Below, in pieces: positions 33,101-46,628 of a stretch of DNA of 64,000 bases. The DNA comes from Promethearchaeia archaeon (GTDB taxonomy: Archaea > Asgardarchaeota > Lokiarchaeia > Sigyniarchaeales > SOKP01). The position numbers and the translations under genes are program-made. Each line of letters opens with the position of its first letter. The first letter of the stretch is position 1. The notes under the pieces were generated by a model. The model had not been told where the DNA came from, ran no database searches, and was given only the letters and a program-made list of their open reading frames with translations. The DNA lies in NCBI GenBank assembly GCA_049671145.1, contig JBATUM010000185.1, positions 1,828 through 65,827 of the forward strand, given 5' to 3'.

Positions 33101-36100
33101 GCCACTAAATTTGACTATCCTATTACTAAAGTTACAATTGAAGGGTTTTCACCTACTTATGGTCCTTATGGTCTGCTTGTAGTTGATGAAGAACCCTTAT
33201 TTGAGGTAGAGCTTGATACATATGACTACAAGTTGATAGGAGGTAATTTGTATTTCCTTCAAAGTATTAATACCATAGCGGCACAGAAGGATCCAGACTT
33301 CAATAATAAAATTTCCACCATCCAAAGTATGGACAGAGAGTTCTATTACAGAGTTAATATATTTTTCAATACCATTGTGCCCTATGACAGTTCCCGTGTG
33401 TATGATGATGAATTTACTCAATCTAGCAGACCAGCTCAGGTGTTATATGAATATGTGGATACTGAAGCCGATGATTTAGGCAAGTTAGCACTAGCTCAAT
33501 TGATTTCCTTGAGTATTGGCAATTATCTTGAAGTATTTACGTTAGCAACAGCAACCGCAGAATATCATACCGAGCAAAGATATACGACTGATATCACCTT
33601 ACAATCTACTCTTATCACTTCACTTGCACTTGCCCCCATGACCATAGCTAATTTGTACGGATCATTCTCGAGCTCAGTTTTGGCTGAGCTTTCCGAGGAG
33701 GCTGGAGAGGAGATTACAAAATTGACAACCCAACAAGCGTTAATATGTTTGGCTAAAGCTTCTGCTGTTGTGTTAGCGAGCATTCCCACTTCAGTTCTTA
33801 AGGAAGTCTATGAAGAATTATATATCGATACGTGGATTGAGCATACTACTGATAGAATTGTTACTGCACTTGGCGGAGATGAGGGAGCTGCATCATGGTG
33901 GTCAACTTTTATCTGTTCTTTTAGAGAGGCATTTCTCGGATGGTTTAGTGATGTAAATATTGGTTCTGGAGCTGATTCCCAAGTTACCACCGAAACTACT
34001 CAAACCACAGGCACTCCTACCTATGCTGATATGGGATTGAATGCCGCGTGGGATTTAATTCAAAACACAGAGCAGGCCCTTCAAAATATTGAAGTTGCTA
34101 TACAACAAGGACGGAAAGTAGCTTCTAAAGGAATTTTAAGCTCTTTAGTCGATACTGATTCTATTCTGGCTCTTCTCTTATCTATACCAGGATTAATAGT
34201 AGGCGGTTTTGGGTTAGGAGCTCTTTCACTGCTAGGTTCTGCTAGTATGGATATGATTCATGCCCAGATCCAGAAGAATGTAGCAAGAAAATGGGTTAGC
34301 GCATATGAAAGTATACAAGAGAATATGCAGCAGAGTTTGGATGGGTTAATAGAACAAGAGATTGCCCGACCGAAGATCAAAACTTTAGATCTTGAAGTTT
34401 TCAACTATCCAACGGTAGGATATACCCCAGAAATTGGGAGGCAATTAACCCAAAACTATCTTACTCCTGCACAAATCATTGATCAAACTAATACACTTAT
34501 AGCAGATACAGAAAAGACATTAGCAGAGATAGAGTCTCGGTATGAAATTCAGAAAGAAAATATTGAACAACAATTAGAAGTTTTAAAAGAAATGGTAAAT
34601 TCAGAGTCCGTTTCCAATGAAAATCCCTTTGAAATTTTTGTAGCAGAAGCTGCTGTGAAAGCTGATCCTGTTTATGAAGTAAATGGCATGAGAATATGGA
34701 TTCAACCGCTTCCTGCTGAGCATTATAACTTAGATCATGATATGACATTGAATGAATTTTTAGCTTTAATAGACATCTTAAATGATCCTTCAAAACAAGC
34801 GGTATTCAATGGTTTTATTCTCCAACATGGGACAGAAATTCTCACCGCACAAGGGATCATTCGATTAGATGGAAATATGCCCCTTTCTCAAGCATTAGAC
34901 CTTATTGGATATGATCGAAATAATTTGGAAGATCAATTTAATAGGTTAGCTCCTTGTATTCAAATAATTGACACAACTACACTCCTACAATTACAAGATG
35001 ATATATCGAATCTATTCAATCCTGATGCAAGAGAAGCAATTTTTTATCGAAATAGTATTTCTGACTATCAACGAAGTTATTTTTATTATAAATTTTTAAA
35101 AGTTTATCAAATACAACAATCTGAAATAAAAAACACATTTAATAAACCGATATATGAAGTAATCTATAGTAGGCTAGTGAATAGCTTACCAACGGATATT
35201 GAATTTACACTAGAGGCGTGGAAGCAAGAAGTTGATGATAAAGCAAAACAAGAAGGAAAAATTACAGATGAATTTAGATATATTGTTGACCTATGCCTTA
35301 AAGAAGTAATTTTACTTAATTTGATCGAACTCTCAGGTGCGAACGAAATTGACATAAATGAAATATTTAACTCATTGGATAACTACTTAGAAAATAATTT
35401 GGATGCCCTTATTGAAAAGTTATCTGATCCCAAAAATTTCGCATTACTCTTAGCTGAAGTCAAAAACAAGATCATTGACAACCTCGCACAAGATGACTTA
35501 TCAGTGTTTTTAGCCCTTACTCACCGATACTTTGATTCCATAAACCCGAATCCAAGTCAACTAAATCTGTTGGATGAGCAATTTCAAAATATCCTAATAT
35601 TAAAAGATTTATCTACTATAGCTGAAGATAATAATGTTCGTAATGAAATTAATTTTCTGTCCGATTTTATCTACCGATTACTCAATATTTACTCTGAAAC
35701 TGCTATTTTAGAGGGTTTAAATGATTTACCTGTACCAGGAGATAAAAGAGAAGGAAATGATTTTATAAATAAATTCTTAAATATGCAGGGTCCTAATAGT
35801 GAAATCCAGTACTCCATAAATCACCTCAGAAATATGTTCACAGCATTAGGATTAAATAATGACCTTTTGAAAGAGATGCTTTTAGATCAAAAATCTTTCT
35901 TTAGGGTTTTACGTCAAAAAATTCAACAAGCTAGCCAAAATCAAGATTTAGATCAAGAAGTTAGAAATATATTCAATAATATTGAAACAAACTTAGGAGA
36001 TTTAGATTTCAATGGAAATGATGGATTCACGAGTGATGAAGAGATGCTTTTAAAGATTTTAGATGAAGAACTTAATAATCTTTTTGGATATGTTGGTTAT

Positions 36101-36973
36101 TCACTTTTACAATTAGGTTTAATATCAATTGACAATAATTGGAATTTAGAATTTAAAGCCCCAAAAGATATAGGAACTCTAATAGATATTATTAGAAATC
36201 TTAATATTCATGCCAATTTTGAAATTAATTTGGATGGTGCGAATAATATAGAGAATGTGGCAAATCTAATACTTTCAATATTATTATCAGGGCACTATAA
36301 AACGTATACAATTGTTGACGAGACAGGAAAAGTAATAAAACAGAAACAAAAATATACTCATCCCGGAAGAGATTTCTTAGGTAATTTATTCGAAAATTAT
36401 CAAGTAGGTATTAAAAATCCTCTTTATCACATCAATATCAATGATATTTTTACAAAACAATTTATTTACACTCGACATTTTGTTAATTTCTTTAGATTGT
36501 CTCAATTATATGATGAAAAATTATTCTTTCAATTACCACCAGGTACTCAATTCACTAAAGCAAAAACCATTGGAATTGTTGAATCTGTGGGTGGTGAACG
36601 AATAATCGATGAAATTAATAATATTCGAGTAAAAGATAATAGACGTGTATTTTGGCTCGAATTAGGAAACCAATTTAGTGGATTTGAACATATTCTGTAT
36701 GACAGGAACATATTCGGTACATTTGAATTGAATAAAGAGAAAAATCCTTATGGGCATATGAGAGACTTTGCAGAGTGGGGTGGTTTTTATACTAGAGAGG
36801 ATATAGCGACATTAATTTTGAATACAATTAAAACACAAGAATACACAAGTAGTATAAATGAAAATGGAATAGAAGAGTTAAGATTCGAAGTAATGACAAA
36901 TTTTGGAATTATTAAGGAATTTGTTATCATAGTTGCGAGTAATGGATATATAATTTCTGCTTATCCGCAATAA
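101..36973 (+). CDS. Giant (12,290 aa) membrane-anchored surface/adhesin-like protein with a C-terminal toxin-like domain
   Basis: A single 36,873-nt reading frame is open in AT-rich DNA, while all other frames carry only short ORFs. Order of parts: soluble N-terminus, Lys/Arg-rich stretch, hydrophobic cluster, long N/S/T/Y/D-rich region with Ig-like, LamG-like and DxDxDG motifs, second hydrophobic cluster. The C-terminal region recurs as orphan copies downstream. Confidence 0.9.
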   Translation: MFEKKESDIKKSEKQRKKDIDDGLHKYGNYLYSKVYGAPETLLTDHEGKIGFYKSQTMFCPKTECPYHRVSDLSLNIDYNLEEFESEIDYQELIGHKIKQEVQNITPIEKEPVKTLRGQFQEFLKTYKISNVTPDEYFGIAMFFNKYYRKSESPDSQKWVLKKLKYTSDLCSVEEVEDTKQKSKPLPHSNVKLIGKYERYLESQKRSIRRSRYNKKVMKRRTKNLKSYKPIQIQEPSLKKEIYNRNVTRQQLHNVNKNRPFKEKQIPDPIYDRKSKIYYDSSLTENYCLKKVLEQSHVHELTHNYTDESLLRKEIEFFYLKDFLGFFLRNPNLQKSFHFKDSDEIVHFAKLIKGYCYDSFISNIVEKYLKESPLYRLISNISLLSSQIEKQIIPAFEDIISKSKKIRQIINYAEWTNLFTLSRNIEHIQNQLIQHQVKQKHHALLIGLLQQVNALCKDDQVLTHLRDVCRFIKVQVTSITPYIYSSIKLKNRKRAQLLLTHTPVSDLVSFVKRMIAYDIIMQRLEMKESLSLNNKDDKPVETTFSKIKNIFRKEKTQNNMRKKRLISRIKLPKSKKLHIKLNIFNKFRKKRRITKKIRKIRKLKESDYRTKHPDESLYKRIRRRSKEKFGKVRKRSILNLAGKGLASFGVILLCIYLIISLDNSFFPFHIFMGFLIFQVLIYGILLFFSIDRYVLSKSRLWYLILSPFIGFTLLWLCVKLGFSLGATLVIPIFMVVSQLLTRNRPHISVEELVRRSTSKIRHSTLRLFYHTHKFGFLTFLLTIVLIIFLYFYFFVPHLNYIPPMLATLVIFIFTFKSKSALKRVIREVRRKRAKVEESEIKANKCLLVLQDSNKRKALIVLVFLVLFPVSFIVNSAKTVHCPPVEFAYISQEDRLSSSSLDFETLEYQPDTTYLEDISIKDMFIMKSEISPEFAQSAAMRIQLIPEDVPYIEGYHIRDHYDFRSGYVNGPLEDYALITKVELNRFDILPGQYQMHVYYTELTGFSFATSTPEEYEITLEKDAMQVLSNERFEDLPVEYYGAVWTVENVVDNCWTIHFDGTLTNSIHEPLANYELDLFIEDHDTWQKVTTVTTDLEGKFSYEYTIYGSIEMNMMIKISHEGNGLYKPLEYIEYAGLEINTELGRFFIDEDGDGKIDWGLSLEDLLNALLGMSYAPPSSLDFLSHFSESSGTNTYDAVHNYQGILKGDTQWTVGKEGYGLYFDGEGTVSEGSETIGTTIYNAYANVSYQYSDTGWNSPQTTSSVDRSGSVNWSNPNNAQSQDDSYTSSNLEISGGSGVSSWHAESDSEQSITSSSYVEKHTLDFTAPAQGDYLIIVSCEVASTSTSYSVGVRVQLDDTTTIMEALTEACDSNRNYEYKCESTAYLAEDLGSGSHSIDIDAKREGGTSYIRYARIIVLRLDDWLSTTGMYAYTSTEGSTTPASNQWVDLETLTFTPDQAGDYLVLGSVEVKDYHTGYSAAVRLDYDNGSEYLPVIQGEESGQSYITYEAKDTTDYHAFVFGGIINITASQKSIKLQSYMAHTGFYREVRRRRIIAIRLDAMSSDTQSTENASNTSTTSQWADKSSLQFTPSSQQDYFIIGGMVIKPDRTWKPSHGELTHTTGTGTGTISLANVDSKDHDNPADCFPLIGIAIKQLNAEQQVFKTRYGYAGSSGTTYGKGSFIIAVPLGGGGGGGSAESDNLRCTNFGFNIPTGATIEGIEVGMDRYATNITENSIRDDSIRLRKTSGPVGTDNATTDWWDTMDDDTYNTYGGSTNLWGTSWTPADINSINFGIDIAAENIGSTNTAYIDHVRVKIYYTKQDSGIIRPDGDVSAQWEASSDGNHYSLINEETLNTSDYIYTSSNTTGSVIDEFTMETLNIQSGTVTEITVKVYGNETSIDSTVNVYCGSWIGAKQLNMESGQTWYTYTWSGLNLSQSDLDGLKIKFESVQPPSEGSTTYDYVDFGDILDSALGTTNNEFVITGWVYPTVLTSNQSDNGIKNCFFSKEGILEIGINESGYLQLYINTSSIEATAIYGFQNAISTNKWIYIAIRYNNGNIDVLIGDTWCTSALGSTAEPWSGGGNLQSGGKFTIGAETTSYSCFTGKIDEVSVFNTSLTNAEIEEHSFQITATVAKEDGQGGWTLITTNGEVIEGYLNFQCAVAGREADTVEYYLSNEVPDMESPDTNDWYFLTSYSYDSSSYNFVYNSWDLPDNDSWYFIIKATDVYNDTVYTYYETYFGIDHFDELINFTYLDKDGRINQNSQIGVIPYEGCEGYISQLNLYVNYSNDIDYLTTVNYSDLYSNYWLFNLDSLSDWISQKGLTPDNYDINFLIEANLSYSVGEAFYLYNYTLETITLDIEPPELELLTSGNYSFDLEDTYDIIEDNVLTMATNSSDAYFDRVILEYKYTTPSTAGWIEYGEYLADNTSLADVSFDIINLRDDNITIRFIGYDDLDNSKILYSSDYWFIKNFNNHEEFVVEGLEATALYGLDDTDKIDLELKILPVDNDITEVIVRTNYEEFKLDNIISEQEHIYFTDDGSSDPDIKLNSVFYNVFGAKFTFIPVKVILYQGTDIVNSKEVVITVISAVFNDTVQMSNLEINVSSTTDNIYMSFVNETNAYNNSHSIPFVVRNQYPVVNVYNSLNELVESIPLYANNDSWGSKVYDTETIEISSNKFNVSLPTPPSGEVCSIDEVLLNGSAYPFSYFISMNTGQVYITLLSGNDLDGIYNSSNPISIIYGVSTSPHPTEQFVGSFDFSNLHQDNYTFIGKFYDISGEVSTYSISQPTIIDFDGPEIYQQFMQETAVNPETGTISFVIEDFSGVSHYYFNTTIEGYWDIAGDIYTFYFNDTSISEGTTHIILSCNDTLGYESQQTFVLFLDKTTPSFDGVESSTDVWNGLFEIYANISDNSGYTVDIELLHISSNTISSSFEHTYIEIAPDQWQILLDSTRLQSGYYNISIIATDAAENIQTYVIDNVYFDNTISVIEELKEEVFIDSESMYNNTIHDELYFSDEKYITFTAFDEMFDNFNWSSIDQAVYEQLGVKNVTFYYTSQLAWYPLQIYGTLDYETFVYKITGYDDPLNTNVQNIKSIQKLRIANITVDKFTVLLDGTSISIRIDEQYRYLLSSEYSDQIEAQFYEFVDDNVLLAFDQVSEKWKLKSTGENYFNISQYLTLNEGDEFLFWFEIEDGLGNLIHSHKYHGVYDNSMTKDGSDSFFKWSLGTNSTGAGIVLFGSDTYADSTIQLNSSSIENTIFDESDVQRIYIYGSSDQSTWEFIGRAYYSGEESIWNYYWDGDIMEQLPPDHYNLRVYLFDRAGNYLSETHVIRTFDYTQIALITDLIFGEIFDYNSTANSNEQELKGIIENYLSGSSTSLWDVIAEYYNPNTKEWIPLATDPATIVANGNSANYTITWDINQDTAFMDTMYNLTYNYLPLQIASPTQQSLWGSWGTFGIASEWQPIIISEVSSNLDISVYKFNSTTGWELDTSLSSEATISSIEGQVFKLFDINKDGVYEIIRVSSSKIDVIYLDGSSDWTIKEDVTGLSGYEYSAFDIEYDGTSSNSVMVITQKDSSQLLSLWYYRFDSEFNLTKVESVECPINFEPYAIKIENYFSGSDRKAILVGGLISNSYISQVFEYDFNLNLKYVIADEIIGKVSVIEYDQINGIDSIILGVERLAIGKMDAVITLKRTTGTEEWVEFELSGFDDLKFQIIDLITIQENNMKHLIISSKTGLFQTRIITLQDKTSITSPICFISETYAKGELSPTNYPVVTPNNLPIYNIQKASYKTSGSNQWQTLNPEKYRYSRNEIRLDLQSIWSSLTYIKIAYSFESFVAEARSSVDPSFQSYSGTSDTQSVSASGMFFNDFSLPFAWLNPTSNYYAPNAHWNTLPNSLTYQYTPVISGLGNKVVYPTIKSDWAENWGSEYLNMPELENSLIYYGDGYDTGQLTQYLNSKDPDLADTMYLNNYVDGMYISNPYISENYNFSDMYYSDIHNINNQNGLYNYYDGSQKVIARNSLEDCQVYGSSNSKVFEEETFPTKGEDHYLHSVTYIYGSPSSGSIANTKRDDSNYFEMKSQFFHDPYGDDYQEFNVDLNIDGGYGGDDYYVSVRVTAPISVRLIINGVYAQGTSIDVNLDYIGDITQIKLTAGRPASQGQFKVKLYYFKVAKSLSADSPLYQNPSAQEAEYVLANRSQYLATDTSDFAVFGLGFTYKLPVIDRDGIEGIHIMFDAAISAVTADKHYPLSIQLWNYEQNRWESINVSKLDSSDTYDDNYLDKDFWAWDPGASSYKDDKFRSSWLTQDDTSINTICFGDCVPHSIDASGYIDFDSSVENGGNLFNTSKTGYSRNNEYISHYRVLFNNTAYANKLQANSLVIDPNNFFTSTSTFPAYTDSSLFYSANFYTDFLNDLHEFKVRIVTEKESGQGTNINAYLCIGDCNTYVHTDSSYLNYDEFESNALDGRHISDDLEFTDQGMKLYGYSGFNLKGVPEVQKFRDAFNSYQWQFEGTDDSTIYFTKDILQGTVVRSLHPSTNYDTNNFTSYRRQDAVIDYPFYKSALKGNYKAGSLLSIETNNGIYLSYTSEKDTYHEAEVKIYNYFDQMSGNAAKTYTIYYDIESEGTVDFMSLYNEDETIAQWDGGELSGMDRVEDPSTYNLYVYARSNSNFTLNIDQLVVETTPEEWETFMELDTLEEYLTFGSNDKFNLTVSRDSYLYIPTPSPIAKLYSTYLFDEDTITWNNKPADRGLITQNTLPQSSTSEIFDLGTIHPTKQYIKVDISATGGFNFWSPIVNYQFAKSYQEGGMLYMQTNTTEFLTLKSPVYAKNTTMTLNDHIVVECKTTSSNQINLALLSGDVVVKNYTLIPQNNTDFTSQFIALDTNSTIKFDQIIISGQLDEAEYFIANSITVFEGESIVDVKLSAYDFTIKKNQWPNVLPEGAKDQELSDPIYGQEKDGLYYNLSSGTFIDYQQLIVEFEFPLSAEEITNAHKVQVRLNGYAQGASLDDAIFKYFNFDNGNEEEISYVKNNGEYRFSIPKSDFATLKYDNDNYYVNFKMILTNTSMGPDDEFTLHIDSIDAIVFKDWSVDHDLYRVSYVFKRLGDSQTGGNVTLAVNDDILLTIDDNDLYTSGYENVVNFYYDTQTQEWSAFINEDPEDKTNATDTELSLKLRVESHYNNVNHGILLKSVDHHFYKKIENSLNFEEYKSILYSYENRLGNAESVIIGNSSDLITPENLFTQVCADIDVIYSFHDEMVPDNILSYSLNPTLESTYQDTLAAFNYTETGFIPKSSTSSEIEVYNDEKIAVENTTSHTQNGLPYRCSGFFDDQYLSNNTLRFTIKNSIQTPLFGRSNETLYANLKLTDVDLEFNVIISPTYTGFPLENTNVEGNDETVYNPSVLCNYSAYSQSRFRNSAIDDVQIPLISPIELDFSSINLDDFGTANLELALGLDIFRNNILYNRSWSLRFRLLYYNYSSDSWVDFQGMLRVKNNGVDKAVWNPDSTDNFIDYLQDPNANNFIPIYNENNIVIKNPITINNINTDTIQGGIMKLMFISYILPGNFSGDGNNNYFFYERADPDVPIEISQSLTIQECIMIGESKQIMYPEPSLKATLGLDENFRANLSLIENLGDIIAIRGLYEDGDGILYQYPIDYYWTTSGNELAFNSPMKYLFTNVSIEYVPQASLSYNATDGLWYLPNLITINGKNYTQPFFVSNLYVNDTLYGTYVHPSVDVGYVLGFDDKNVYANFSTPIHPDSNVYGAIYFGKVDSKYLYQIKLKDELLYKYNVLNDEDDLIGGIIKLGLNVGFTNVIYSELSQVSCSDYLLDITLYSLSENNDEELEREKIGTIHIDLDKNWVGYHYYDLEINLDQCEFVNESKGIKRLAEALTRGSAADLYIEVESVITNCFVNGPLFKGLYAQDIISAEFEIESDTSEIQYNGAEVDNAYIEIPQKSIMLTKIGTNIYKFGNLKYNFGFVVDELRAEGSVVLAENTHYEFDAGSRTITLIGDDYKGYSGLLSADITYYAFKWNAGQVSTLDPITLTFTQDYVQNITKFMEFIIQYDTIPGIDIEKIDFISGRIVLSDEEKSSALLNIYLYNFVEDKWELTPFVPYDDYSGSLIYSYVADRNFVVFEDYFNQTGSDTFEIKAIFTVEQESGECFASKIGFGITSIGAKLYYNTPSVQHKLNPAVEFDIDITDYITDPNIYLEELTVDLMYEAEIEFDAAFIYSQYALLEENFNFYIRNNYLEFDEFELNHNSITLSREEVYCFLYHDIVNEKYYLRAKLEYDWNCILEINLGSSSKLEIISELTLLKYDLTVDYTYYETTRISANEITVPHEIVPIYAPNYIETQSGINNLADDEELDLGIFGGFLRNVDTRQRLMIRQKLLYNFTESQQDWTQIILDHEYTDSTLRFVVPYGYMEIPETYIINSTYFGFIADHEVVHVELYYKDGQTDTKVANMTQNEEEPTLFKYTWNDVKGDTGASTNDTIEVMFNVTDILGNNAKYRYNLTADFDPPTPTIELGDGVQDFESANTATPLTEIDFICGEQSSCTEEYRIVDLVSGFVSSWNEINHSEISILHDLGDLSANFSIEYRVIDIAGNENITSIYNGNYQYIQFSKEKSITLNDDTIDLNSYTNREISFADGNEFNHSSQLDVFINGFRYGTAYLDSGYYKLSFGNENSEKTLIGYSESLISNNIFSNINPLDHVSWEVREDEYFAVVKHVLLNDNIEIYNYLSFNTTAQFELDHLYDRGFSLHDFMYLNRVYYYNETDGNVYTLISELDYSITENGFVEFPENSTIYDLYQNSDVQDGVVYFNYCYSPYQEQLLLTNADGFFVNVSIPDVYYHHTTIQKLVVSFNDIDGNTFTKIYYDLDLRKYFMEDVKAQYENYMFKLGKMMSIPLYIDFSDIALSNPGKNFALHLLESISFRITDSEKWPGSYIQNFSDYTVMNLPYQRFAITDLKLYNLISDTIDADEQGYVTANITFTAPEYYGFYAEEEFKIKRLDIVFTDVKAYVYHEEILDGSTVAIEYSDQIILNYRWNNTFSPVIMDDVVNLPITLENASNGDILGFSVANWITKLDMDSESGYYTRYYYSQFLAPSLLGEFNISFGSLGTPIFNMTFISPPIFILNITQETLSATEPIYLADDMYELKYGETLLLDGCIADNDEYLIEDEVYEYKYEEAVDGKTTHALKILSPFGDDEFIDKEEFSIYFINDKLNVKCLYSTLNGLHFVNTSYLDGKREPTISYVDNSFILNINWYKKSDHFIEYDTLLLISYKVLKGKPISPTSFSSLDSYGNDMQQNLIEIPFAKYDILSRSWITEDDFEKQLFVDKQLLYKDVESTQATIQGPQYDEGSLIQTGIIDIHAVYVNKSYSDKFCHVAPTEYTWSINANGELVVEDLNYSSGDVFKVIYYAVEPVALSHSVANPQYQISHITVTNDTGYSYEFVEGNDYKVSEDGYTLYFLDLYNEFLKNNVFTIYDYFNITYHAPLSRKVDLSQNVLLMLQDTEGNDIPIDNIPIDSLGFFQYKKQLKVDSDLSLPLGGGKQLVHLTLKYLPLSVYNKSADQSITIDYEDQNVGKFYPYVESNAWAKPFTVITIPHRVKLKMVEDPTQDMVITQEFYEEREYKFNYNPVEALENGEEYTKIMIDALAKEEYQFTFRLSDFDDKPIENSVVWLHIGLMPKSKTGFLNERAVIDEYNIHPYFESLGTEEFTSRGPGIGTNKMFGRPLTYELNYYNTNYSAYGPYVWLYGITNAHGEVIFDVSFDNDFIEDFTDIFGLMEGFSSVEDIVLYIRAFSTDFDWDEFTIDSPDQYLCSKDGDVYNGITEEHYSYICSINNTISYNLALQDSTYVEGLIHLYKNHIALGVHDHVSYDLPDAKVRSRYDPLKLHLDVTEADPIPTTEMYTLQSLTKLHASSELEPSGNPILSDDYTYYAYVNFITPSGSVAESTYRAILDGGNNGYITFDNQTIKDILIDLGPGISTIQIQVAESEYYQASPVVMVPLEIKPANWTKFGEKNLEIDLIDPFINAYGNAFDNDNYIPFESNYPHLIGTLWIDPDYLGTGDNRSAKERSALDCMELNLIFNPDNTDPIPLRKGVMLSPGNQDGIMLFDIGFGPEDSFLMDISGVLNFSFSIEDTKYGIYEDNRTFEAYLLDLRLEENPSCSTPTTLWSVYENGFDTSGVDHLSVKVIDPSIISTETGSLSLGGFENGVNYGFEIEFEYDPEVEEYAIDAQSELLSLFCLESITSLEIINETGQEVTGWSQYYPSPSNLREQSAIKFGSSTPKNYTKFIIIYKFEFEFGTNNYVNMIFGPSNNMNKTSILFYFEDGFLPPSEDSKSFMFIRYNQTIAGTGASSYKLDYSIYGATSGDEDKFIIYNEQELEEELNKEVSLSINGVDHHAYIEFNETIGSGTSFNVIYGVSSQYMLGYGFQKEDKSYSDSVRLMYNNNSAASIIDSSSNTVGTVVLDDPSLYISLDNSPNETVLEFYNVPMLYAPEIIMTFKLDPMNTKLINENYQNEENTLKIKFYYVAQGGYGSYYTDALEIPLNYTKIQSDLINDIYTLQYSKDLQGIYEAFGVGSLDIYISISQTGNNSNYIPYIILEQFDYLCDEHLVEMYARMPLTKEGEMDVEAIINTPHYFQVFSQPFIDCEWGESPFDLMNGSEITVALEDLIHSSLVSLDVEDGNYGFTYLGTMETLPINSENYYMIPNLGVFTDAYSVDEVTYNEGFLNLFYGAGAQVSGEYEYYNRHYMVHESSPVDDYYSVIGSGVPTSWEDMFNITNQFLTTQEIDVSGTVLYHQLFDLTTDTIDMGDLEDVLGNITNAYFALQLPDEVSIAHIRAIGTPYEYDLSVQGFPVGDYVDGTYCKVKTSGTTQAFDTRIIDLDLLNASTDFDLKFATNGSKYIVFYKPTSFVQNLAENDMIMVDFWAYYTFAEGFDYEIEEDPINPYVSIIDWDYNIESLQSYTMHPDFANGSSFSIEFSALDWNSINNQYIYDGEDEFTFHPSISTNITVPYYGDATEDFSLLNIVPEEQWNDTEIFYYVYVYIWDGENESSTELYELREAFYNGYITQDENCSFYFTLNFTAMEDYIKIMEGNNYEIISDTYAFVQVSFISDQLKYPLSHTPFNYDYVGTEHTSYHIKLTISNNDPIYSYQTSEFSKYVLKIEDNYIHFQNRNYSEEGYIANKTNIKIEYKFKLQPGLLEQKHVLMTIYPWSNTFDSIFDGLTAADGSMMSYREKYRKLSGGSIISPFEYSLSINETYSLLLSYRLNQREYFEEHFEIDHRTGENEFYYMQEGLDLYVSELVEDGIPAVYVYYHDEEGRLNFLDRESYLVDTNIHKLTILSDSNPIITYIKDFYVSFLVTPHDFISTGYKFTYNPSIKNITETLTLTSWNVLNGESFDVYPNFDAYYYLNEDTLTPTFCESFATQIGAVLEEEERLVLNFTDALDSQMLTDIRDGKYLSLYINTAFSNYESLDHITIELNDTSGIMSEFTQVYTRSDLEYWDFKIKVRLPSTANTLQNMTIIPEFRSDDEYSPNNSLGVPRFDMIEWDSQALVEDINGQYMLHNLEYPLYTDESSLDLAYLFTDKLEYLGLPTGIAFNWSIEKDALGKDISILHIPSIYVDPITSVNCTFEDGDTIFLRYNSPVEKEIGIGIESMYFHKEPYGYDSLSTLAECMLINASSSESFVEFIAPYSYNFSLSLTPFDTEYMGSYKNIEIEFNVSSLAQFADGDGYVDFSDLVFSVPNPAYELTIQEVALIEHSLAPSEYVDEFYSRIWQYTELEEFTSSADPESDQYHLLLEEGPIFYYDADEGKWLEHLKIYDENYNYYSACVQGDADAKNYQLLYDSTSGNFTWNNNFDKTQEYWGMEIELPSIIDANTSFYFEYCTNSSWVHPITLYYTHIDFDSVDIIYNYEYLLTPRFEEWYGEIVENSNYDYELVQYYGETFTVYTDESVYSHIFNVEYSFTKDFVNMSLYKIVGMYANYTELMIEDDDVNFDITFDVEDKNVTITDLNSGDGLLNVFDSITIFLNYSFGPISMLTEVYLSDEFNQTYLTDMEETFYDYVSCSFSYHANSPNYLFAEPYQYIISGSSSFSPINFSRNEDLTTGYHLESYDTTTLYTKFEIFEDPFNVIYEADIDSNGEVDYKQEVDVDKDGKVDITRYGVEDPEYAGQIIWYRVIQEFESTERTIELFENPEKRTEWFDLDESHVGTLLDAEYREGVLEMFGIDSLEGFPLWNPTYWNMWCQRSTKQSSSKEQVVTTKFYSIRSDENRDGYAETQVNYLKTIATTYTNLTTIEETYVAGQTTCITSHKLDYSKMSAIFSIVTVEHLESGEFPDKFKKFTGIIEQLKESFTKYVRTTCVYYKDTQISEQIKYIEFEEGEIKETRVYSDNFVDEFSAFDCESTIQTLTITINDTEQAQEVVSPAAFIAEISTLNWTTPTWGIDDVPLKFDSLTTISSEGDIVAENYYERTIIISVPSIYSLYHEYLSDERAGMLPVATSNTLFSVKGVFITPPDGQVFYSSDKLDYLSGRLVEDGDGSGGFSVKAKTEGHYLYYDSDGNGYYETIFILYPDHVGDGIYTVMSVGFNYDGRQVFDPYEVLDYEILQGNVKSETEQSAKVVGAVCHRTLLAQIDEVYPNDFDGVIAKDHIFEIIKLVRRGDINKYWPELYYEVYHDQYARSWELYSQGFQDDLWDQTRNQLIAGIVGGSLGIFNVALGGLAYAFIYWGYSMMESEEKKQLAENHMRSATFYSIETERKDPIKVSQKHPADGPEDMWENINGHPSAFYTEVSGGEPGNLYTGQAVIIPPRSFSTWSESMYHVNPHDYPDLAIGYLNLDYFFLSSELSAYNDRPHYSFYFDNLGNMDDLSEVFSALSELGARPTDPSSFFAKALLYHQYRHNTLAYLEDHVEVISDKEFNAIRPICINGRPRYEFINANDELNQLTLPRSPLYQPIVVDQERYDALVEEFGVPIGVISVEVASDLLEEDYTLGISSSDMNLAERESYNAKIPLTATKFDYPITKVTIEGFSPTYGPYGLLVVDEEPLFEVELDTYDYKLIGGNLYFLQSINTIAAQKDPDFNNKISTIQSMDREFYYRVNIFFNTIVPYDSSRVYDDEFTQSSRPAQVLYEYVDTEADDLGKLALAQLISLSIGNYLEVFTLATATAEYHTEQRYTTDITLQSTLITSLALAPMTIANLYGSFSSSVLAELSEEAGEEITKLTTQQALICLAKASAVVLASIPTSVLKEVYEELYIDTWIEHTTDRIVTALGGDEGAASWWSTFICSFREAFLGWFSDVNIGSGADSQVTTETTQTTGTPTYADMGLNAAWDLIQNTEQALQNIEVAIQQGRKVASKGILSSLVDTDSILALLLSIPGLIVGGFGLGALSLLGSASMDMIHAQIQKNVARKWVSAYESIQENMQQSLDGLIEQEIARPKIKTLDLEVFNYPTVGYTPEIGRQLTQNYLTPAQIIDQTNTLIADTEKTLAEIESRYEIQKENIEQQLEVLKEMVNSESVSNENPFEIFVAEAAVKADPVYEVNGMRIWIQPLPAEHYNLDHDMTLNEFLALIDILNDPSKQAVFNGFILQHGTEILTAQGIIRLDGNMPLSQALDLIGYDRNNLEDQFNRLAPCIQIIDTTTLLQLQDDISNLFNPDAREAIFYRNSISDYQRSYFYYKFLKVYQIQQSEIKNTFNKPIYEVIYSRLVNSLPTDIEFTLEAWKQEVDDKAKQEGKITDEFRYIVDLCLKEVILLNLIELSGANEIDINEIFNSLDNYLENNLDALIEKLSDPKNFALLLAEVKNKIIDNLAQDDLSVFLALTHRYFDSINPNPSQLNLLDEQFQNILILKDLSTIAEDNNVRNEINFLSDFIYRLLNIYSETAILEGLNDLPVPGDKREGNDFINKFLNMQGPNSEIQYSINHLRNMFTALGLNNDLLKEMLLDQKSFFRVLRQKIQQASQNQDLDQEVRNIFNNIETNLGDLDFNGNDGFTSDEEMLLKILDEELNNLFGYVGYSLLQLGLISIDNNWNLEFKAPKDIGTLIDIIRNLNIHANFEINLDGANNIENVANLILSILLSGHYKTYTIVDETGKVIKQKQKYTHPGRDFLGNLFENYQVGIKNPLYHININDIFTKQFIYTRHFVNFFRLSQLYDEKLFFQLPPGTQFTKAKTIGIVESVGGERIIDEINNIRVKDNRRVFWLELGNQFSGFEHILYDRNIFGTFELNKEKNPYGHMRDFAEWGGFYTREDIATLILNTIKTQEYTSSINENGIEELRFEVMTNFGIIKEFVIIVASNGYIISAYPQ
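2030..2725 (+). other. Cluster of about 6-7 predicted transmembrane helices (N-terminal anchor of the giant protein)
   Basis: Hydrophobic runs include LASFGVILLCIYLIISL, FHIFMGFLIFQVLIYGILLFFSI, LWYLILSPFIGFTLLWLCV, LGATLVIPIFMVVSQLL, FGFLTFLLTIVLIIFLYFYFFV, MLATLVIFIFTF and ALIVLVFLVLFPVSFIV. A K/R-rich stretch (about 1780-2010) precedes them. Confidence 0.7.
4051..5150 (+). repeat. Three tandem protein repeats of about 120-130 aa inside the giant ORF
   Basis: The units start HTLDFTAPAQGDYLIIVSCEV, ETLTFTPDQAGDYLVLGSVEV and SSLQFTPSSQQDYFIIGGMVI. They end RIIVLRLDDW, RIIAIRLDAM and SFIIAVPLGGGGGGG. Confidence 0.7.
5969..6465 (+). other. LamG / concanavalin-A-like lectin domain (main part)
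   Basis: The sequence ...NEFVITGWVYP...WIYIAIRYNNGNIDVLIGD...GGKFTIGAE...FTGKIDEVSVFNTSLTNAEIEEH matches the Laminin_G_3-type pattern (hydrophobic core strands, then F-x-G-x-I-D-E-V-x-h-h-N-x-x-L). Confidence 0.6.
10480..11300 (+). other. Possible FG-GAP/VCBS-like beta-propeller region
   Basis: Blades of about 50-60 aa recur, with motifs such as FDINKDGVYEIIRV, FDIEYDGTSSNSVMVIT, KAILVGG and DSIILGV. Judged by eye only. Confidence 0.3.
14160..14420 (+). other. Possible DNRLRE/CBM-like module
   Basis: DKFNLTVSRDSYLYI...LFDEDTITWNNKPA resembles the TWNNxP signature of DNRLRE-type carbohydrate-binding modules. Confidence 0.3.
30470..30539 (+). other. Two adjacent DxDxDG-type calcium-binding loops
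   Basis: DIDSNGEVD and DVDKDGKVD lie 8 aa apart. Similar loops occur at about 3540 (DEDGDGKID), 10600 (DINKDGVYE) and 31735 (DSDGNGYYE). Confidence 0.5.
32520..34290 (+). other. Conserved pre-toxin module shared with the orphan ORF at 41867
   Basis: The two copies are collinear. Giant gene: LNLDYFFLSSELSAYNDRPHYS, FNAIRPICINGRPRYEF, LYQPIVVDQERY, YNAKIPLTATKFDYPITKV. Orphan: LNLDYFLMTSELPAYNFRPGYS, FDTIRPVCKDGRPQYEF, LYQPIVLDQYRF, YKAKIPLFQHEFDYPVQNV. Both continue into matching hydrophobic segments. Confidence 0.8.
36482..36970 (+). other. C-terminal cassette CT1 (putative toxin domain plus junction)
   Basis: From VNFFR onward it is collinear with orphan CT2. CT1 reads VNFFRLSQ...AKTIG...RVFWLELGNQFSGFEHILYD...ASNGYIISAYPQ. 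CT2 reads VNFFRSSH...AKTIG...RVTWLELGNQFGGMEHILYD...SSNGYIINAHPW. Confidence 0.6.
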
Positions 36974-37033: not shown

Positions 37034-37504
37034 ATGGAAATAATAGTAAAAAAGGTAAGAACAGGAGCAGAATATGAAGGCAAAATTGCAAATTTTTGGA
37101 TTTTAGGGCAATTAAAAGATTCCTCATGTATATGGATCTTTGACAGTAAGGCATATGATTTAAGGAAACACATAAACAACAATGTTGAATGTTTAATTTT
37201 AGCTTTTTTAGTGAATCTTACTCAAAAAGATTATAAGCAAGATAACAAAGAATCAATAACTAATATAATTAGTGGAAATTTTATTAAATCTGCTCTAATA
37301 ACATCAGACTGGAAGTTGCCATGGAATTATAAAGAAAAGCACTTTGCGGCATTAAACACAAATAATGGTTTGGTTTTATTGGATTGGGCAGATCTTGAGA
37401 CAATACCTATTCGAGAAAACATCGAAATTAAATTTCAAGAGCTAGATGAATTAAAATTATATGTACAACGATTCGATTTGGTAGCTTGGCATCCAATTGA
37501 ATAA
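37034..37504 (+). CDS. Putative immunity protein 1 (AWHPIE family, 156 aa)
   Basis: It starts 60 nt after the giant ORF stop and is preceded by a TAGGAGCG Shine-Dalgarno-like sequence. No TM segment or signal peptide is visible. It is paralogous to 38503-38985 and to the remnant at 41297-41536, and its C-terminus reads VQRFDLVAWHPIE. Confidence 0.6.
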   Translation: MEIIVKKVRTGAEYEGKIANFWILGQLKDSSCIWIFDSKAYDLRKHINNNVECLILAFLVNLTQKDYKQDNKESITNIISGNFIKSALITSDWKLPWNYKEKHFAALNTNNGLVLLDWADLETIPIRENIEIKFQELDELKLYVQRFDLVAWHPIE

Positions 37505-37590
37505 TTTTTATTCTATTTTCTTTAATTCCTCTACTTATTAAATATAATTAAAAGATAATCTAAAAATAGTAAAAAATTGGAATAAAAAAT

Positions 37591-37941
37591 GTGGATCTAA
37601 TGGTAAGATTAAATCAAGAATTTGATGAGCCAATAAGTGAAAGTATGTCAGGATTTTTAGTAGATATAATTGACAAAATAGATGAAATTACTGAACAAAA
37701 CCCTGATCAAATAATAAATGATTATCTGGCAAAATATTATGAAAGAAGGAAGCCAGTAGAACATTCTTTTAGTGATGATTTAATTGAAATTGTCAAAAAT
37801 GATATTATACTCAATATAATAGAAGTGAATACAGAAAAATTTGAAAATGTTAGTCAACCTGTAATGAATAAATTAATTGTGTTTTTCAAAGATTTTTTTA
37901 TAGATGAATTCCATAAATACAAAAACATTGAAATAAGTTAA
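37591..37941 (+). CDS. Hypothetical acidic protein; possibly a decayed pre-toxin linker of the orphan cassette
   Basis: GTG start, 116 aa. Its end overlaps, in another frame, the point where CT2 homology begins (37937). KNDIILNIIEVNTEKF weakly resembles KNPLYHININDIFTKQF in the giant protein. Confidence 0.35.
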   Translation: MDLMVRLNQEFDEPISESMSGFLVDIIDKIDEITEQNPDQIINDYLAKYYERRKPVEHSFSDDLIEIVKNDIILNIIEVNTEKFENVSQPVMNKLIVFFKDFFIDEFHKYKNIEIS

Positions 37942-38494
37942 TTTCTTTAGATCATCTCATTCATGGAATTTAGAATTAATTTATGAATTAAGAGGAAATG
38001 GTGTAACTTTTGATATTGCAAAAACAATAGGTCTAGCAAGAGAAGGTCGAGAAATCATAGAATTACCTGATGGCTCCTTTGCAATTAGTGGAAGGGAAAG
38101 TAGGGTTACATGGCTAGAATTAGGAAATCAATTTGGTGGTATGGAACATATTCTGTATGATACATTTATATTTGGCTCTTACGCTCCACACCCTACGCAT
38201 TTAGGCCATCTTGGGGATTTTGCAAAGTATGGTTATGATACAAAAGAAGAAATTGCTGAATTAATATTAAAAACAATCCATGAAAATGATTATTATATGT
38301 ATCTTGGTAGACATACTTATAGAATTGAGACTAAATCAGGTGAAACTATATATATAGGAATTATTATATCATCAAATGGATATATAATTAATGCCCATCC
38401 TTGGGATCGGGATCAGGATGATATTGATAATTTAAATAAAATCTTTCAGGAGATTGATGATTATTTCAATTTTAAATTATTTAATAATTGGTGA
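37937..38494 (+). pseudogene. Orphan CT2 cassette (start-less copy of the giant protein's C-terminal about 185 aa)
   Basis: The frame opens right after a stop at 37934-37936 and translates to VNFFRSSHSWNLELIYELRGNGVTFDIAKTIGLAREGREIIELPDGSFAISGRESRVTWLELGNQFGGMEHILYD..., collinear with giant residues VNFFRLSQ...EHILYD. The first ATG is internal, at 38141. Confidence 0.75.
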
Positions 38495-38502
38495 ATATTT
38501 TT

Positions 38503-38985
38503 ATGAAAGTTTTCTTAGAAAAAGTAAATATTGGGACTGAATCAGAGGGAGTAATATATGAATTCCTAATTCATGGTCGATTAAATAGTAATCAAATTAT
38601 ATATATTCATGATGACGCTGCGAAATTTGATCTTCGAAATTTTGAGAATCAGGTAGTTGAAATTCTTTTAGTAGCACATAATATTTCCCTTAAAACCACT
38701 TCAAGGAGACCTGATACTCAATTAATAGATAGGGAACTTAGAGTTATTAAAGGCAACTATCTTGGAAGATATGTTCTCCCTAATGAATGGCATGATTCGA
38801 AATATTTTCATAATGAGAGATCCTATAAGTATTGGCATCATCTTGATCTTCATGCGATTAAAGCGGAAAATGGAATATTTATAATTACGAATGAGAATGC
38901 TGAAAAGTTACCCATTGAAAAAGGAGAAAAAAGCTATTTCTATGTTGATAGTTTTTATATGATTGCATGGCATCCAATTGAATAA
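38503..38985 (+). CDS. Putative immunity protein 2 (AWHPIE family)
   Basis: An ATG at 38503 lies 8 nt after the CT2 stop (the track's TTG at 38488 is less likely). The N-terminus MKVFLEKVNIGTESEG parallels MEIIVKKVRTGAEYEG, and the C-terminus reads VDSFYMIAWHPIE. Confidence 0.6.
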   Translation: MKVFLEKVNIGTESEGVIYEFLIHGRLNSNQIIYIHDDAAKFDLRNFENQVVEILLVAHNISLKTTSRRPDTQLIDRELRVIKGNYLGRYVLPNEWHDSKYFHNERSYKYWHHLDLHAIKAENGIFIITNENAEKLPIEKGEKSYFYVDSFYMIAWHPIE

Positions 38986-39024
38986 TTTTGACTCTATTTT
39001 TTATTTAAAATTCCTCTACTTTTT

Positions 39025-39078
39025 AAATAATTTCTATAGACATTTTCTCCCTCCCCCATGGTGCCCCTGTTGAAAAAG
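39025..39078 (+). repeat. GC-rich direct repeat, copy A
   Basis: AAATAATTTCTA...CTCCCTCCCCCATGGTGCCCCTGTTGAAAAAG. Its partner at 46563-46628 shares the AAATA(A/G)TTTCTA, CTCCCTCCCC, TGGTGCCCC and TGAAAAAG blocks. Confidence 0.6.
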
Positions 39079-39358: not shown

Positions 39359-39634
39359 ATGAAAGAAAATTTTAATTGTCAACGGAAAAATAATGTAAAT
39401 CAAGGCGTATTGCATAATTACAGATTAATTTTAGAAGGGATTATACGCTTTGAACATGAGAAATCTATTCTTTTTGAACTTAGAAAGAATAAAGAATCCT
39501 ATATTTCTTTTAAGATTAAAAAAATAGTAGCAGATATTAAATCAATCACCTTTAATGAGTGGCAGATCAAGAAAGAAAACTTCTATAACAAATTAAAAAT
39601 CAATGAAATAGGGAGAGTGCCATGGAGATCTTAA
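39359..39634 (+). CDS. Hypothetical small protein (91 aa), translationally coupled to the helicase-like gene
   Basis: The ORF overlaps the next start by 13 nt. No recognisable motif. Confidence 0.4.
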   Translation: MKENFNCQRKNNVNQGVLHNYRLILEGIIRFEHEKSILFELRKNKESYISFKIKKIVADIKSITFNEWQIKKENFYNKLKINEIGRVPWRS

Positions 39635-41250: not shown

Positions 41251-41294
41251 TATCATCAATTCACAGACCAACATATCATCAATTCACAGACCAA
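41251..41294 (+). repeat. Tandem duplication (two 21-nt copies, 23-nt period)
   Basis: TATCATCAATTCACAGACCAA occurs at 41251-41271 and again at 41274-41294. The duplication lies exactly at the 5' break of the immunity-gene remnant. Confidence 0.85.
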
Positions 41295-41296
41295 AT

Positions 41297-41536
41297 GTAA
41301 TTCAAGGTATTTACATAAATAATTATGAAATACCAATAAAATGGAAAGACTACGATAAATTTTATTCAGAAAGATCTATTGCAATAAAAACTAATGAGGG
41401 TTTTTTTTTATTAGACGCATCTGATGTTAAAAAAATGTCAATTCGGGGAAAAAAAGAAATTAAATTAAAGGAAGGTCAAAAAATTACTCTTTATGTTGGG
41501 AGGTTTGATCTACATGCTTGGTATCCACTAGAATAA
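41297..41536 (+). pseudogene. 5'-truncated remnant of a third AWHPIE-family immunity gene
   Basis: It translates to VIQGIYINNYEIPIKWKDYDKFYSERSIAIKTNEGFFLLDASDVKKMSIRGKKEIKLKEGQKITLYVGRFDLHAWYPLE*. This is collinear with the C-terminal halves of the two intact paralogs. No in-frame start lies upstream. Confidence 0.7.
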
Positions 41537-45728: not shown

Positions 45729-46568
45729 ATGGGTTTTTATAAAATAGACGGAAAAAAATATGAGGTAAAAAAAGATTATATCAATCTATATGAATGTGGA
45801 TTAAATTTAATTCGTGATATTATTGGTTTAGACCAACTGGTAAATTTAAGAGCTTTATTGTTAGAACGTAACAATATTAGTGATATCGAAGGATTGGAAA
45901 ACCTTATAAATTTAAAAATTTTAAACTTAGAGGATAATCATATTAATGAGATTAAGGGATTAGAGAAACTTACAAATTTAGAGACATTGAAATTGAATAT
46001 TAATTCAATAAGTAAAATAGAACAAATTGAAAATTTAACGAATTTAATAGAATTAAACTTAAGTTCAAACAATATTAAAATAATAGAAGGACTTACGAAA
46101 TTGATAAAATTAGAAAAATTATCTTTGGCAAATAATCAAATTTCCAAAATTTCTGGTTTAAATTCGTTAAAAAATCTCTCTCTATTAACTTTAGATTCTA
46201 ATAAAATCACAAAAATAGAGAATCTACCCATATCAAAAAAATTAGAATCTTTAAGTTTAGGTGATAATAAAATCACTGAAATTTCTGGCTTAGATAATTA
46301 CAGGAATTTGATACTTTTATATTTAAGAAATAATAAGATTAGTGAAATTACGGGTTTAAAATCTCAGAATAATTTGGAATATCTTGATTTAAGCAATAAT
46401 AATATTAAAGAGTTAAAGGGATTAGAGAGGATGACAAAATTAACTCAATTAGAATTTGGTGGAAATTTAATAGATCCTAATTTGATTGAAAAATTAGGTG
46501 GTTTAGATAGAAGTGGATGTGCATTACAACCTCAAAAGTTTGTTGAATATTGTAGAAAAAATAAATAG
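45729..46568 (+). CDS. Leucine-rich repeat protein (about ten 22-aa LRRs, SDS22/internalin-like)
   Basis: The unit LxxLxxLxLxxNxIxxIxGLxx repeats regularly, for example LENLINLKILNLEDNHINEIKG and LEKLTNLETLKLNINSISKIEQ. No TM segment or signal peptide is visible. Confidence 0.85.
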   Translation: MGFYKIDGKKYEVKKDYINLYECGLNLIRDIIGLDQLVNLRALLLERNNISDIEGLENLINLKILNLEDNHINEIKGLEKLTNLETLKLNINSISKIEQIENLTNLIELNLSSNNIKIIEGLTKLIKLEKLSLANNQISKISGLNSLKNLSLLTLDSNKITKIENLPISKKLESLSLGDNKITEISGLDNYRNLILLYLRNNKISEITGLKSQNNLEYLDLSNNNIKELKGLERMTKLTQLEFGGNLIDPNLIEKLGGLDRSGCALQPQKFVEYCRKNK

Positions 46569-46628
46569 TTTCTAATTAAACTTTCTTTCCTTTACCTCCC
46601 TCCCCTGTGGTGCCCCCTCCTGAAAAAG
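46563..46628 (+). repeat. GC-rich direct repeat, copy B
   Basis: AAATAGTTTCTA...CTCCCTCCCCTGTGGTGCCCCCTCCTGAAAAAG. It is the partner of copy A at 39025-39078. Confidence 0.6.

Follow-up and report, generated by a model that had tools for sequence, protein, structure and literature searches.

A predicted orphan toxin-immunity cassette behind a giant polymorphic toxin gene in an Asgard archaeon

Displaced toxin modules are a familiar component of bacterial competition systems. In Proteobacteria, orphan cdiA-CT/cdiI modules lie downstream of contact-dependent growth inhibition (CDI) loci, orphan rhs-CT/rhsI modules are also found, and such modules typically retain a piece of pre-toxin homology. 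Polymorphic toxin systems that keep such 'spare warhead' cassettes are characteristic of the cell-to-cell warfare of bacteria. The Asgard archaea are the closest known archaeal relatives of eukaryotes. For archaea, polymorphic toxins are described as large proteins with variable C-terminal toxins and adjacent immunity genes, known as computational predictions and experimentally uncharacterised (PMC8416519; PMC6393860). Here we describe a locus of this kind in a 64,000-nucleotide stretch from a Promethearchaeia (Asgard) archaeon (assembly GCA_049671145.1, contig JBATUM010000185.1, positions 1,828 to 65,827 of the forward strand), which we call the window throughout. An open reading frame (ORF) of 12,290 codons, followed in the ORF listing of the window by small plus-strand ORFs, ends in a predicted toxin domain (CT1) and is trailed by a putative immunity gene (Imm1). 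Further downstream lie a second, start-less copy of the toxin domain (CT2) and its neighbour (Imm2), which an earlier note on this DNA had proposed to be an orphan toxin-immunity cassette. Our analysis agrees: with an intact toxin lacking a start and a downstream gene that co-varies with it, CT2/Imm2 is, by homology, an orphan cassette in an archaeal polymorphic-toxin locus. We think it likely that this cassette, with a silent toxin and an active immunity gene, was made by illegitimate recombination.

The frame of CT2 reopens at 37937, directly after an in-frame stop codon, with GTT AAT TTC TTT AGA, which encodes VNFFR. When the DNA downstream of the giant gene was compared with the giant protein by blastx, 37937-38401 matched aa 12128-12289 (40.6% identity over 165 aa, E 3e-22), and this match begins with the first codon of the CT2 frame. 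AKTIG and WLELGNQF(S/G)G(F/M)EHILYD are aligned blocks common to CT1 and CT2. An ORF listing that accepts ATG, GTG and TTG as starts has none of the three in this frame before the ATG at 38141, which lies inside the EHILYD core. The earlier note had described the stop followed by VNFFR, the blocks shared with the giant and the missing initiation codon in much these terms, and each of these observations stands. CT2 has what is expected of an orphan, namely a toxin domain that has neither start codon nor delivery module and sits downstream of an armed pair. A second start-less example occurs among the related loci (designated here by L numbers, and proteins by P numbers): the L011 orphan starts 7 codons past the V of VNFFR, and its first start codon is a TTG inside WLELG. 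The orphan in L012 likewise lies downstream of another CT-Imm pair.

Homologues of the giant's C-terminal end place the start of CT2 in context. The last ~790 aa of the giant (aa 11497-12290; 34589-36973) correspond to free-standing genes, 614-887 aa long, found in metagenome-assembled genomes (MAGs) of Hermod-, Thor- and Promethearchaeota and in metagenomes. These genes begin M(D/E)GKVNSES at the point where the giant has KEMVNSES; in L002 the module is divided between two ORFs (167 + 614 aa). They align with the giant from aa ~11499 to aa ~12118-12175, and their C-termini beyond are unrelated. Seven homologues carry at least five CT types, with divergence setting in within ~3 residues of VNFFR. 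Between members that differ in CT type, pairwise identity falls from 32-37% (200 to 50 columns upstream of VNFFR) through 24-29% (the 50 columns next to it) to 12-13% after it. The conserved pre-toxin end, upstream of VNFFR, reads YTHP...F...NF...YH..I...I...F(I/L)..R. Because homology of the module runs up to VNFFR and then gives way to unrelated C-termini, the start of CT2 coincides with the family-wide boundary between pre-toxin and polymorphic toxin, which confirms the earlier suggestion that CT2 begins at a conserved junction. The architecture is that of a predicted polymorphic toxin system. Scans with the module alignment returned one locus from species-representative genomes and one from Joint Genome Institute (JGI) metagenomes, neither of them new.

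One related locus carries the CT2 type behind the pre-toxin. In L001, a 6.7-kb contig from a related MAG, the first 84 residues of a 268-aa ORF are 92.8% identical to the giant pre-toxin. Beyond VNFFRLSQ the ORF is a toxin of the CT2 type, 74-75% identical to CT2, and an Imm2-type gene comes next. In a three-way nucleotide alignment L001 tracks the giant up to GTTAATTTCTTTAGATTATCTCAATT and CT2 from there on, so the CT2 type does occur in frame with a giant-type pre-toxin. L001 is itself truncated at its 5' end (stop at 516-518). Directly upstream of its orphan is a 77-nt direct repeat (1-78 and 414-490) found in no other locus, which could mark the end of a mobile element or have arisen in assembly.

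In the same three-way alignment, the orphan in the window loses all similarity to the giant and to L001 directly 5' of GTTAAT. The DNA on that side belongs to ORF116 (37591..37941), whose TAA at 37939-41 overlaps GTTAAT. The earlier note had observed that ORF116 is in another frame than CT2 and ends where the homology starts, and had read it as a decayed pre-toxin linker. The observation is correct but the reading is not: blastx of the downstream DNA found no similarity between ORF116 and the giant, and nearly all of ORF116 is a fragment of another gene (Table 1). Its only homologue outside this contig is P0159, a 168-aa protein encoded in L009, another MAG, and ORF116 represents the 3' two-thirds of that gene. 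Identity between L009 and ORF116 stops at ...TAAG, the G of which is the first base of GTTAAT; in L009 the P0159 gene ends two codons further on with its own stop, followed by a spacer and a C-rich element that is described below. Over its N-terminal 63 residues, P0159 is similar to the S24-peptidase-like domain of toxins of the type of ORF1263, a second toxin gene in the window (hhalign probability 97%). We considered ORF116 as a diverged linker of such a toxin and rejected this, as the match is confined to those 63 residues, which are absent from the window.

As assembled, the 5' edge of CT2 is a butt joint of two unrelated DNAs that share 1 nt, a figure that rises to no more than 5 nt when a 3-nt gap is permitted. 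An overlap this short is too little for a de Bruijn assembler to join on, so we take the joint to be real, although reads alone would prove it. Orphans of the same toxin family break at other points: 84 codons upstream of the boundary in L001, about 75 upstream in L012, about 47 upstream in L013 and 7 downstream in L011. (P0009, at first counted as an orphan with 14 pre-toxin codons, was dropped because the gene is cut by the contig end.) The codons for VNFFR differ in L012 and L013. Variable breakpoints, a butt joint with an unrelated P0159-like fragment and fragments of other cassettes argue for illegitimate recombination or deletion rather than a site-specific junction.

We next describe the toxin domain itself. 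Pfam scans of CT1, CT2, Imm1, Imm2, ORF116 and two further ORFs downstream (ORF91 and ORF490) gave no significant match. An alignment of CT1, CT2, the L001 homologue, P0003, P0007 and the C-terminus of ORF1263, referred to as A2, yielded an AlphaFold (AF2) model of CT1 with a pLDDT of 81.8 and a pTM of 0.80. The model is ordered from VNFFR onward, and disorder is limited to the six preceding residues (IYTRHF). A Foldseek search of the PDB gave chain C of 7M5F as its sole significant match (E 9.5e-4, prob 1.0, TM-scores 0.53 and 0.72, the latter on the target). The A2 profile also matches the sequence of this chain in hmmsearch (E 9.5e-6), and the profile match aligns WLELGNQF.G.EHIL...GH..F with IIFLEKGNSKSGLQHIVEEHGDQF of 7M5F. 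This structure is the CdiA-CT of Serratia marcescens BWH57, a BECR-fold RNase with the candidate active site H47/E51/H52/R89 (PMC8616854). Two histidines, in EHIL and GH..DF, are invariant in A2 and align with both histidines of LQHIVEEHGDQF in the solved chain; judged from the motif, they appear to be H47 and H52, the chain numbering in the alignment being different from that of the paper. CT1 is probably a BECR-fold toxin, with RNase activity predicted, and CT2 is by homology a diverged allele of the same fold. A profile search of 1.84 billion representatives found 419 relatives at E<=1e-3, and among the matches listed most longer proteins have the toxin match at or near the C-terminus (residues 434-536 of 538, 1017-1116 of 1118 and 1671-1782 of 1784).

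These results bear on the proposal that VNFFR...WLELGNQF serves as a demarcation motif like VENN or PxxxxDPxGL, which we do not uphold. The stretch sits inside the confidently folded toxin domain and is conserved only in modules with one toxin type: VNFFR is kept with this toxin (variants VNFFR, LKFFR, VEFFR and IKFFR) and is absent from modules with other toxins. WLELGN...G.EHI...GH..F, moreover, matches the RNase core of CdiA-CT(BWH57). Since VNFFR...WLELGNQF...EHILYD aligns to the solved CdiA-CT core, the stretch is best regarded as the toxin's own conserved core.

A homologous gene of ~150-220 aa stands directly after the toxin in nine cassettes, two in the window and one each in L001, L002, L004, L006, L010, L011 and L012, and the proteins usually end (A/S)W(H/Y/N)P(I/L). 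The toxin and the gene after it have diverged in parallel, with identities of 75% and 58% between CT2/Imm2 and their L001 counterparts and of 44% and 33% between CT1/Imm1 and CT2/Imm2. We regard the genes after CT1 and CT2 as putative immunity genes that co-vary with the toxin. A remnant of a third, Imm3, lies further downstream. Judged by eye, its DNA is near-identical to the immunity gene of L011, which in that locus follows a start-less CT1-type orphan, and a short tandem duplication (atcatcaattcacagaccaa twice) is present at the 5' breakpoint of Imm3.

From these data we read the armed gene as coding for a 12,290-aa protein whose last ~790 aa form a conserved, predicted delivery/pre-toxin module ending in CT1, with Imm1 behind it; CT2 is a diverged copy stripped of everything upstream of the first structured residue. 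CT2 would not be made as it stands because it has no start codon and no delivery module and an in-frame stop lies directly upstream. Imm2, with a Shine-Dalgarno-like site and an ATG, would most likely be expressed, and could protect the cell from relatives armed with CT2. The orphan would have arisen in a decaying array of cassettes, through illegitimate recombination or a deletion and with no dedicated motif involved; the joint is seen in the sequence, and the mechanism is what we infer from it. The coding capacity of the cassette is well preserved. Relative to L001, the ratio of nonsynonymous to synonymous substitution rates (dN/dS) is 0.21 for CT2 and 0.35 for Imm2. In CT2, 98 single-base changes would give a stop, and the probability of finding no stop after 0.1 neutral substitutions per site is 0.04. 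Together, the intact frame, the low dN/dS and this probability suggest that CT2 was either silenced recently or is still selected for its coding capacity, as a reservoir that is re-armed occasionally.

The DNA shared by CT1 and CT2 suggests how re-arming might proceed. The common nucleotide tract starts at 36482 in the giant and at 37937 in CT2 with 16 identical bases, GTTAATTTCTTTAGAT, which are also identical in L001, and extends to 54 nt at 74% identity. The earlier note had made its case depend on such a tract at the junction; it is present, with the small correction that the giant copy begins at 36482. The copies are 1455 bp apart, or 3 x 485, and hence in frame. Recombination between the two copies of GTTAATTTCTTTAGAT would delete CT1-Imm1 (1,455 bp) and re-arm the giant with CT2. 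The deletion would join ...YTRHF to VNFFRSSHS..., changing the giant's warhead, and Imm1 would be lost. The EHILYD block (36653-36717 vs 38111-38175) has a run of 17 nt identical in CT1 and CT2; within it a CTG codes for Leu where L001 has TTA. This identity may reflect a micro gene-conversion tract, although the cluster was picked post hoc and is not significant. Over the whole domain, a three-way relative-rate count (36 vs 30 sites, p = 0.54) gave no overall signal that one copy had converted the other.

Several points weigh against the silent-orphan interpretation and should be set beside it. CT2 is homologous to the giant only from its first codon on, so that no pre-toxin sequence is retained, whereas other orphans of the family keep 47-84 pre-toxin codons. 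That the breakpoint falls exactly on a domain boundary is left as chance, or as selection for loss of homology. The 16 identical nucleotides, or 54 at 74%, are short for homologous recombination. All 185 codons of CT2 are intact, which together with its dN/dS means that CT2 could still be used in some unseen way. Silence of CT2 and expression of Imm2 are both inferred from sequence signals, and the signals used do not cover archaeal promoters or leaderless initiation. Lastly, the earlier note envisaged variants in which CT2/Imm2 occupies the terminal position of the giant gene. L001 goes part of the way, fusing the CT2 type to 84 pre-toxin codons, but neither the species-representative genomes nor the JGI metagenomes yielded a complete giant gene with CT2 at its end.

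The other end of the cassettes has a recurrent feature of its own. Several Asgard genomes have a G+C-rich element, CCCTCCCCCRTGGTGCCCC(C)TCCTGAAAAAG, 30-65 nt past the last gene of toxin-immunity or toxin-antitoxin cassettes. There are 20 copies in the ~202 kb made up by the window and the related loci, all oriented as the toxin genes, where chance would predict none in the window. Besides those in Table 1, they include L001 1866 and 2648; L002 12431; L004 8806; L006 3508 and 6880; L008 7607; L009 10551; L010 1269, 2231, 3103, 3947, 5059 and 5865; L011 1-20; and L013 3957. In L010 the element parts six small cassettes, mostly toxin-antitoxin, one of them with genes on the opposite strand. After Imm1 it is missing, and only the left part of the spacer is duplicated there. 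The window as a whole, this element included, has no match to Rfam at gathering thresholds, nor any ARAGORN match. RNAalifold on 17 copies gave no consensus stem; single copies fold with AT-rich flanking stems that are not in register. Among integron features, a repeat of constant orientation separates cassettes, no consensus pairing and no GTTRRRY were found, and recombinase genes occur in some related loci only. The element could mark the end of a cassette, as in an integron, or serve as a terminator or in regulation. It is a long shot that Asgard toxin cassettes are mobile, with 3' ends set by CCCTCCCCCRTGGTGCCCC(C)TCCTGAAAAAG and recognised by neighbouring tyrosine recombinases, and that the start of CT2 reflects cassette exchange and not random deletion. 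Were it true, it would amount to an integron-like system with a new kind of recombination site, one that also feeds alternative warheads to a giant surface protein.

This brings us to the other ways of reading the CT2 junction. In one of them, which we consider unlikely, VNFFR/GTTAAT or the adjacent pre-toxin end is a demarcation or site-specific recombination site where a tyrosine recombinase exchanges CT-Imm cassettes, and the C-rich element forms the other end of an integron-like cassette; this takes the idea of the earlier note further. In its favour, the orphan starts within 0-2 residues of the family-wide boundary, the 16-nt tract is identical in the giant, CT2 and L001, and the joint (...AAG/TTAAT) superficially resembles the integron G/TTRRRY crossover. 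The C-rich element closes almost every cassette in one orientation, including the toxin-antitoxin array of L010. Tyrosine recombinase genes stand beside the free-standing modules in L001, L004 (divergent) and probably L008 (divergent), and integrons have been reported to be enriched in Asgard archaea (PMC9668308). A dedicated site, however, is hard to reconcile with same-family orphans that break at -84, -75, -47 and +7 codons, with a VNFFR that belongs to the folded toxin, is missing where other toxins are carried and is spelled with other codons in L012 and L013, or with a GTTAAT that departs from GTTRRRY. The C-rich element and its surroundings gave neither an R''/R' pair nor a consensus hairpin, and no recombinase gene was detected in the window.

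Two further readings would give CT2 a protein product. Joined by a +1 frameshift, either programmed or due to a one-base error in the MAG, ORF116 and CT2 would make a free-standing toxin of ~300 aa. The frames overlap by 5 nt (ATA AGT TAA / GTT AAT), so that one skipped base suffices, the CT2 frame is intact, and free-standing toxins with unrelated N-termini and their own ATG do exist in L004 (167 aa) and L006 (237 aa). We nonetheless hold this fusion to be very unlikely. In L009 the P0159 gene has its own stop no more than two codons from this position, with spacer and C-rich element beyond it, so that ORF116 ends where a gene ends naturally; ORF116 has also lost its 5' part. In the giant and L001 the GTT of GTTAAT is part of the CT2/pre-toxin homology, and the site offers neither a slippery sequence nor a homopolymer. 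We give even less credence to the idea that translation from the ATG at 38141 makes a functional 117-aa protein, be it a truncated toxin, a decoy or a regulator. That protein is in the NCBI record as WBH31_09085, keeps both invariant histidines and the C-terminal sheet, and has GGTGG just upstream of its ATG. The Met is, however, the usual internal residue of full-length homologues (L001, P0009 and P0012), and the 204 nt upstream of it, read in the same frame, are still homologous to CT1 and L001. The GGTGGT abuts the ATG with no spacer, as against 8-9 nt for the corresponding AGGAG and GGTGA of Imm1 and Imm2, and translation from this ATG would leave out ~68 N-terminal residues of the fold, which in the CT1 model amount to about four strands and two short helices and include the WLELGN strand aligned to the 7M5F core. 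The annotated 117-aa 'hypothetical protein' should be read as a shortened call on the orphan toxin module. A silent CT2 beside an active Imm2, left by illegitimate recombination, remains the interpretation we favour.

The remaining features of the window are collected in Table 1. The only Pfam match on the giant protein is Laminin_G_3. The second toxin gene, ORF1263, is related to the giant over its N-terminal 580 aa (29% identity to giant aa 10805-11383, E 7e-51). Its middle holds an S24/S26-peptidase-like segment common to P0010 and P0019, and its C-terminal domain (GNGIIHI...HTAYP) is, by sequence, a member of the same BECR-like toxin superfamily as CT1 and CT2. A leucine-rich repeat (LRR) protein gene (45729-46568) follows ORF1263 in place of a WHPIE-type immunity gene. 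ORF91 and ORF490 occupy 39359-41094 of the window. ORF490 recurs beside toxin modules elsewhere, with 72% identity to L008 749-2218 and 41% to L004 1866-3344. Also near the toxin genes are a weakly SocA/Panacea antitoxin-like ORF (46726-47316) and a gene for a HerA/DUF87-like ATPase (54826-56772); in L002 a DUF87 gene adjoins the free-standing module. Genes further downstream in the window, such as those for a TrmY-type methyltransferase and a CDP-alcohol phosphatidyltransferase, are consistent with an archaeal source.

Table 1. Features of the giant toxin gene, the orphan cassette and their surroundings (window coordinates).
Feature	Position	Strand	Evidence or remarks
Giant ORF, 12,290 aa, carrier of armed toxin CT1	101..36973	+	transmembrane-like segments at aa 637-879 and 11349-11378; Pfam
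Conserved C-terminal module/pre-toxin, ~630 aa (giant aa 11497-12127)	34589..36481	+	homologous to free-standing Asgard genes; ends ...KQFIYTRHF
CT1, toxin domain of the giant (aa 12128-12290), predicted BECR-like fold	36482..36973	+	first 16 nt are junction repeat copy 1
Imm1, putative cognate immunity gene, 156 aa	37034..37504	+	AGGAG 8 nt before ATG; ends AWHPIE
3' flank repeat copy 1 (Imm1 end and ~40 nt of spacer, including AATTCCTCTACTT)	37457..37544	+	usual C-rich element missing after it
Fragment of P0159-like gene, within ORF116	37607..37937	+	95.5% nt identity (316/331) to L009 10170-10500; S24-peptidase-like 5' part absent
TAA in CT2 frame, directly before VNFFR	37934..37936	+	sequence
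CT2, predicted orphan toxin domain, 185 codons, intact, start-less	37937..38494	+	first 16 nt are junction repeat copy 2
First in-frame start-type codon (ATG), internal Met of GGMEHILYD	38141..38143	+	NCBI start of 117-aa WBH31_09085
Imm2, putative orphan immunity gene, 160 aa from ATG	38503..38985	+	GGTGA 9 nt before ATG; ends AWHPIE
3' flank repeat copy 2	38938..39029	+	nucleotide repeat
C-rich cassette-end element, CCCTCCCCCATGGTGCCCC	39049..39067	+	conserved motif
Imm3, 5'-truncated remnant of a putative third immunity gene	41264..41536	+	40% identical to Imm1 aa 69-156
ORF1263, predicted second toxin gene	41867..45658	+	paralogue of giant aa 10805-11383; S24-like domain; C-terminal domain GNGIIHI...HTAYP
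C-rich element, second window copy	46598..46616	+	after the LRR gene that follows ORF1263

The locus offers a concrete Asgard example of this kind of architecture, with a 12,290-aa carrier, a defined boundary, a predicted toxin fold homologous to a solved CDI RNase and displaced cassettes of at least three generations. It suggests that Asgard archaea practise kin discrimination or interference competition, and CT1/Imm1 and CT2/Imm2 are defined constructs for work on toxicity and cross-immunity.

How does this locus compare with described systems? The giant contains no VENN, VDNN or VSNN and no filamentous haemagglutinin (FHA) repeats, its neighbours include no TpsB/Omp85-type match, and neither an RHS Pfam match nor DPxGL was found in it; on these features the locus is not a CDI or Rhs system. 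The toxin itself is closest to CdiA-CT(BWH57), with which it shares the core (L)E.GN...G..HI...H..F...NGY(I/V) and the predicted BECR RNase fold. The two differ in that identity is ~19%, the Asgard domain has an additional ~45 N-terminal residues (VNFFR...AKTIG) and its carrier is unrelated to CdiA. The immunity protein has 150-220 aa and ends WHPIE, compared with the 98-aa CdiI of BWH57, a distinction drawn by size and ending only. Integron arrays and clusters of attC sites lacking integron-integrases (CALINs), reported to be enriched in Asgard archaea (PMC9668308), are similar in having small, often toxin-antitoxin cassettes each with a repeat of constant orientation, as in L010, and tyrosine recombinases lie near some of the related loci. 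Unlike integrons, the repeat has a C-rich linear core with no detectable attC-type paired arms, no IntI was identified in these loci, and the 5' edge of the orphan is not beside the element. Like the predicted archaeal polymorphic toxins, the locus combines a large protein, a variable C-terminal toxin and an adjacent immunity gene; the DUF4157 protease/colicin D signature cited for them (PMC6393860) was not found at this locus.

The closest likeness is to the proteobacterial orphan cdiA-CT and rhs-CT modules. There, as here, a 5'-truncated, start-less toxin with an intact immunity gene next to it lies downstream of the armed pair of a large gene, and a short tract in common with the armed gene at the CT boundary means that recombination could swap toxins. 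Unlike those orphans, this one has an Asgard host, keeps a tract of only 16 nt and has a fragment of an unrelated gene as its upstream neighbour. The features to which the earlier note drew attention are the usual look of such orphans, and the value of the locus lies in its lineage and its giant carrier, not in a new mechanism.

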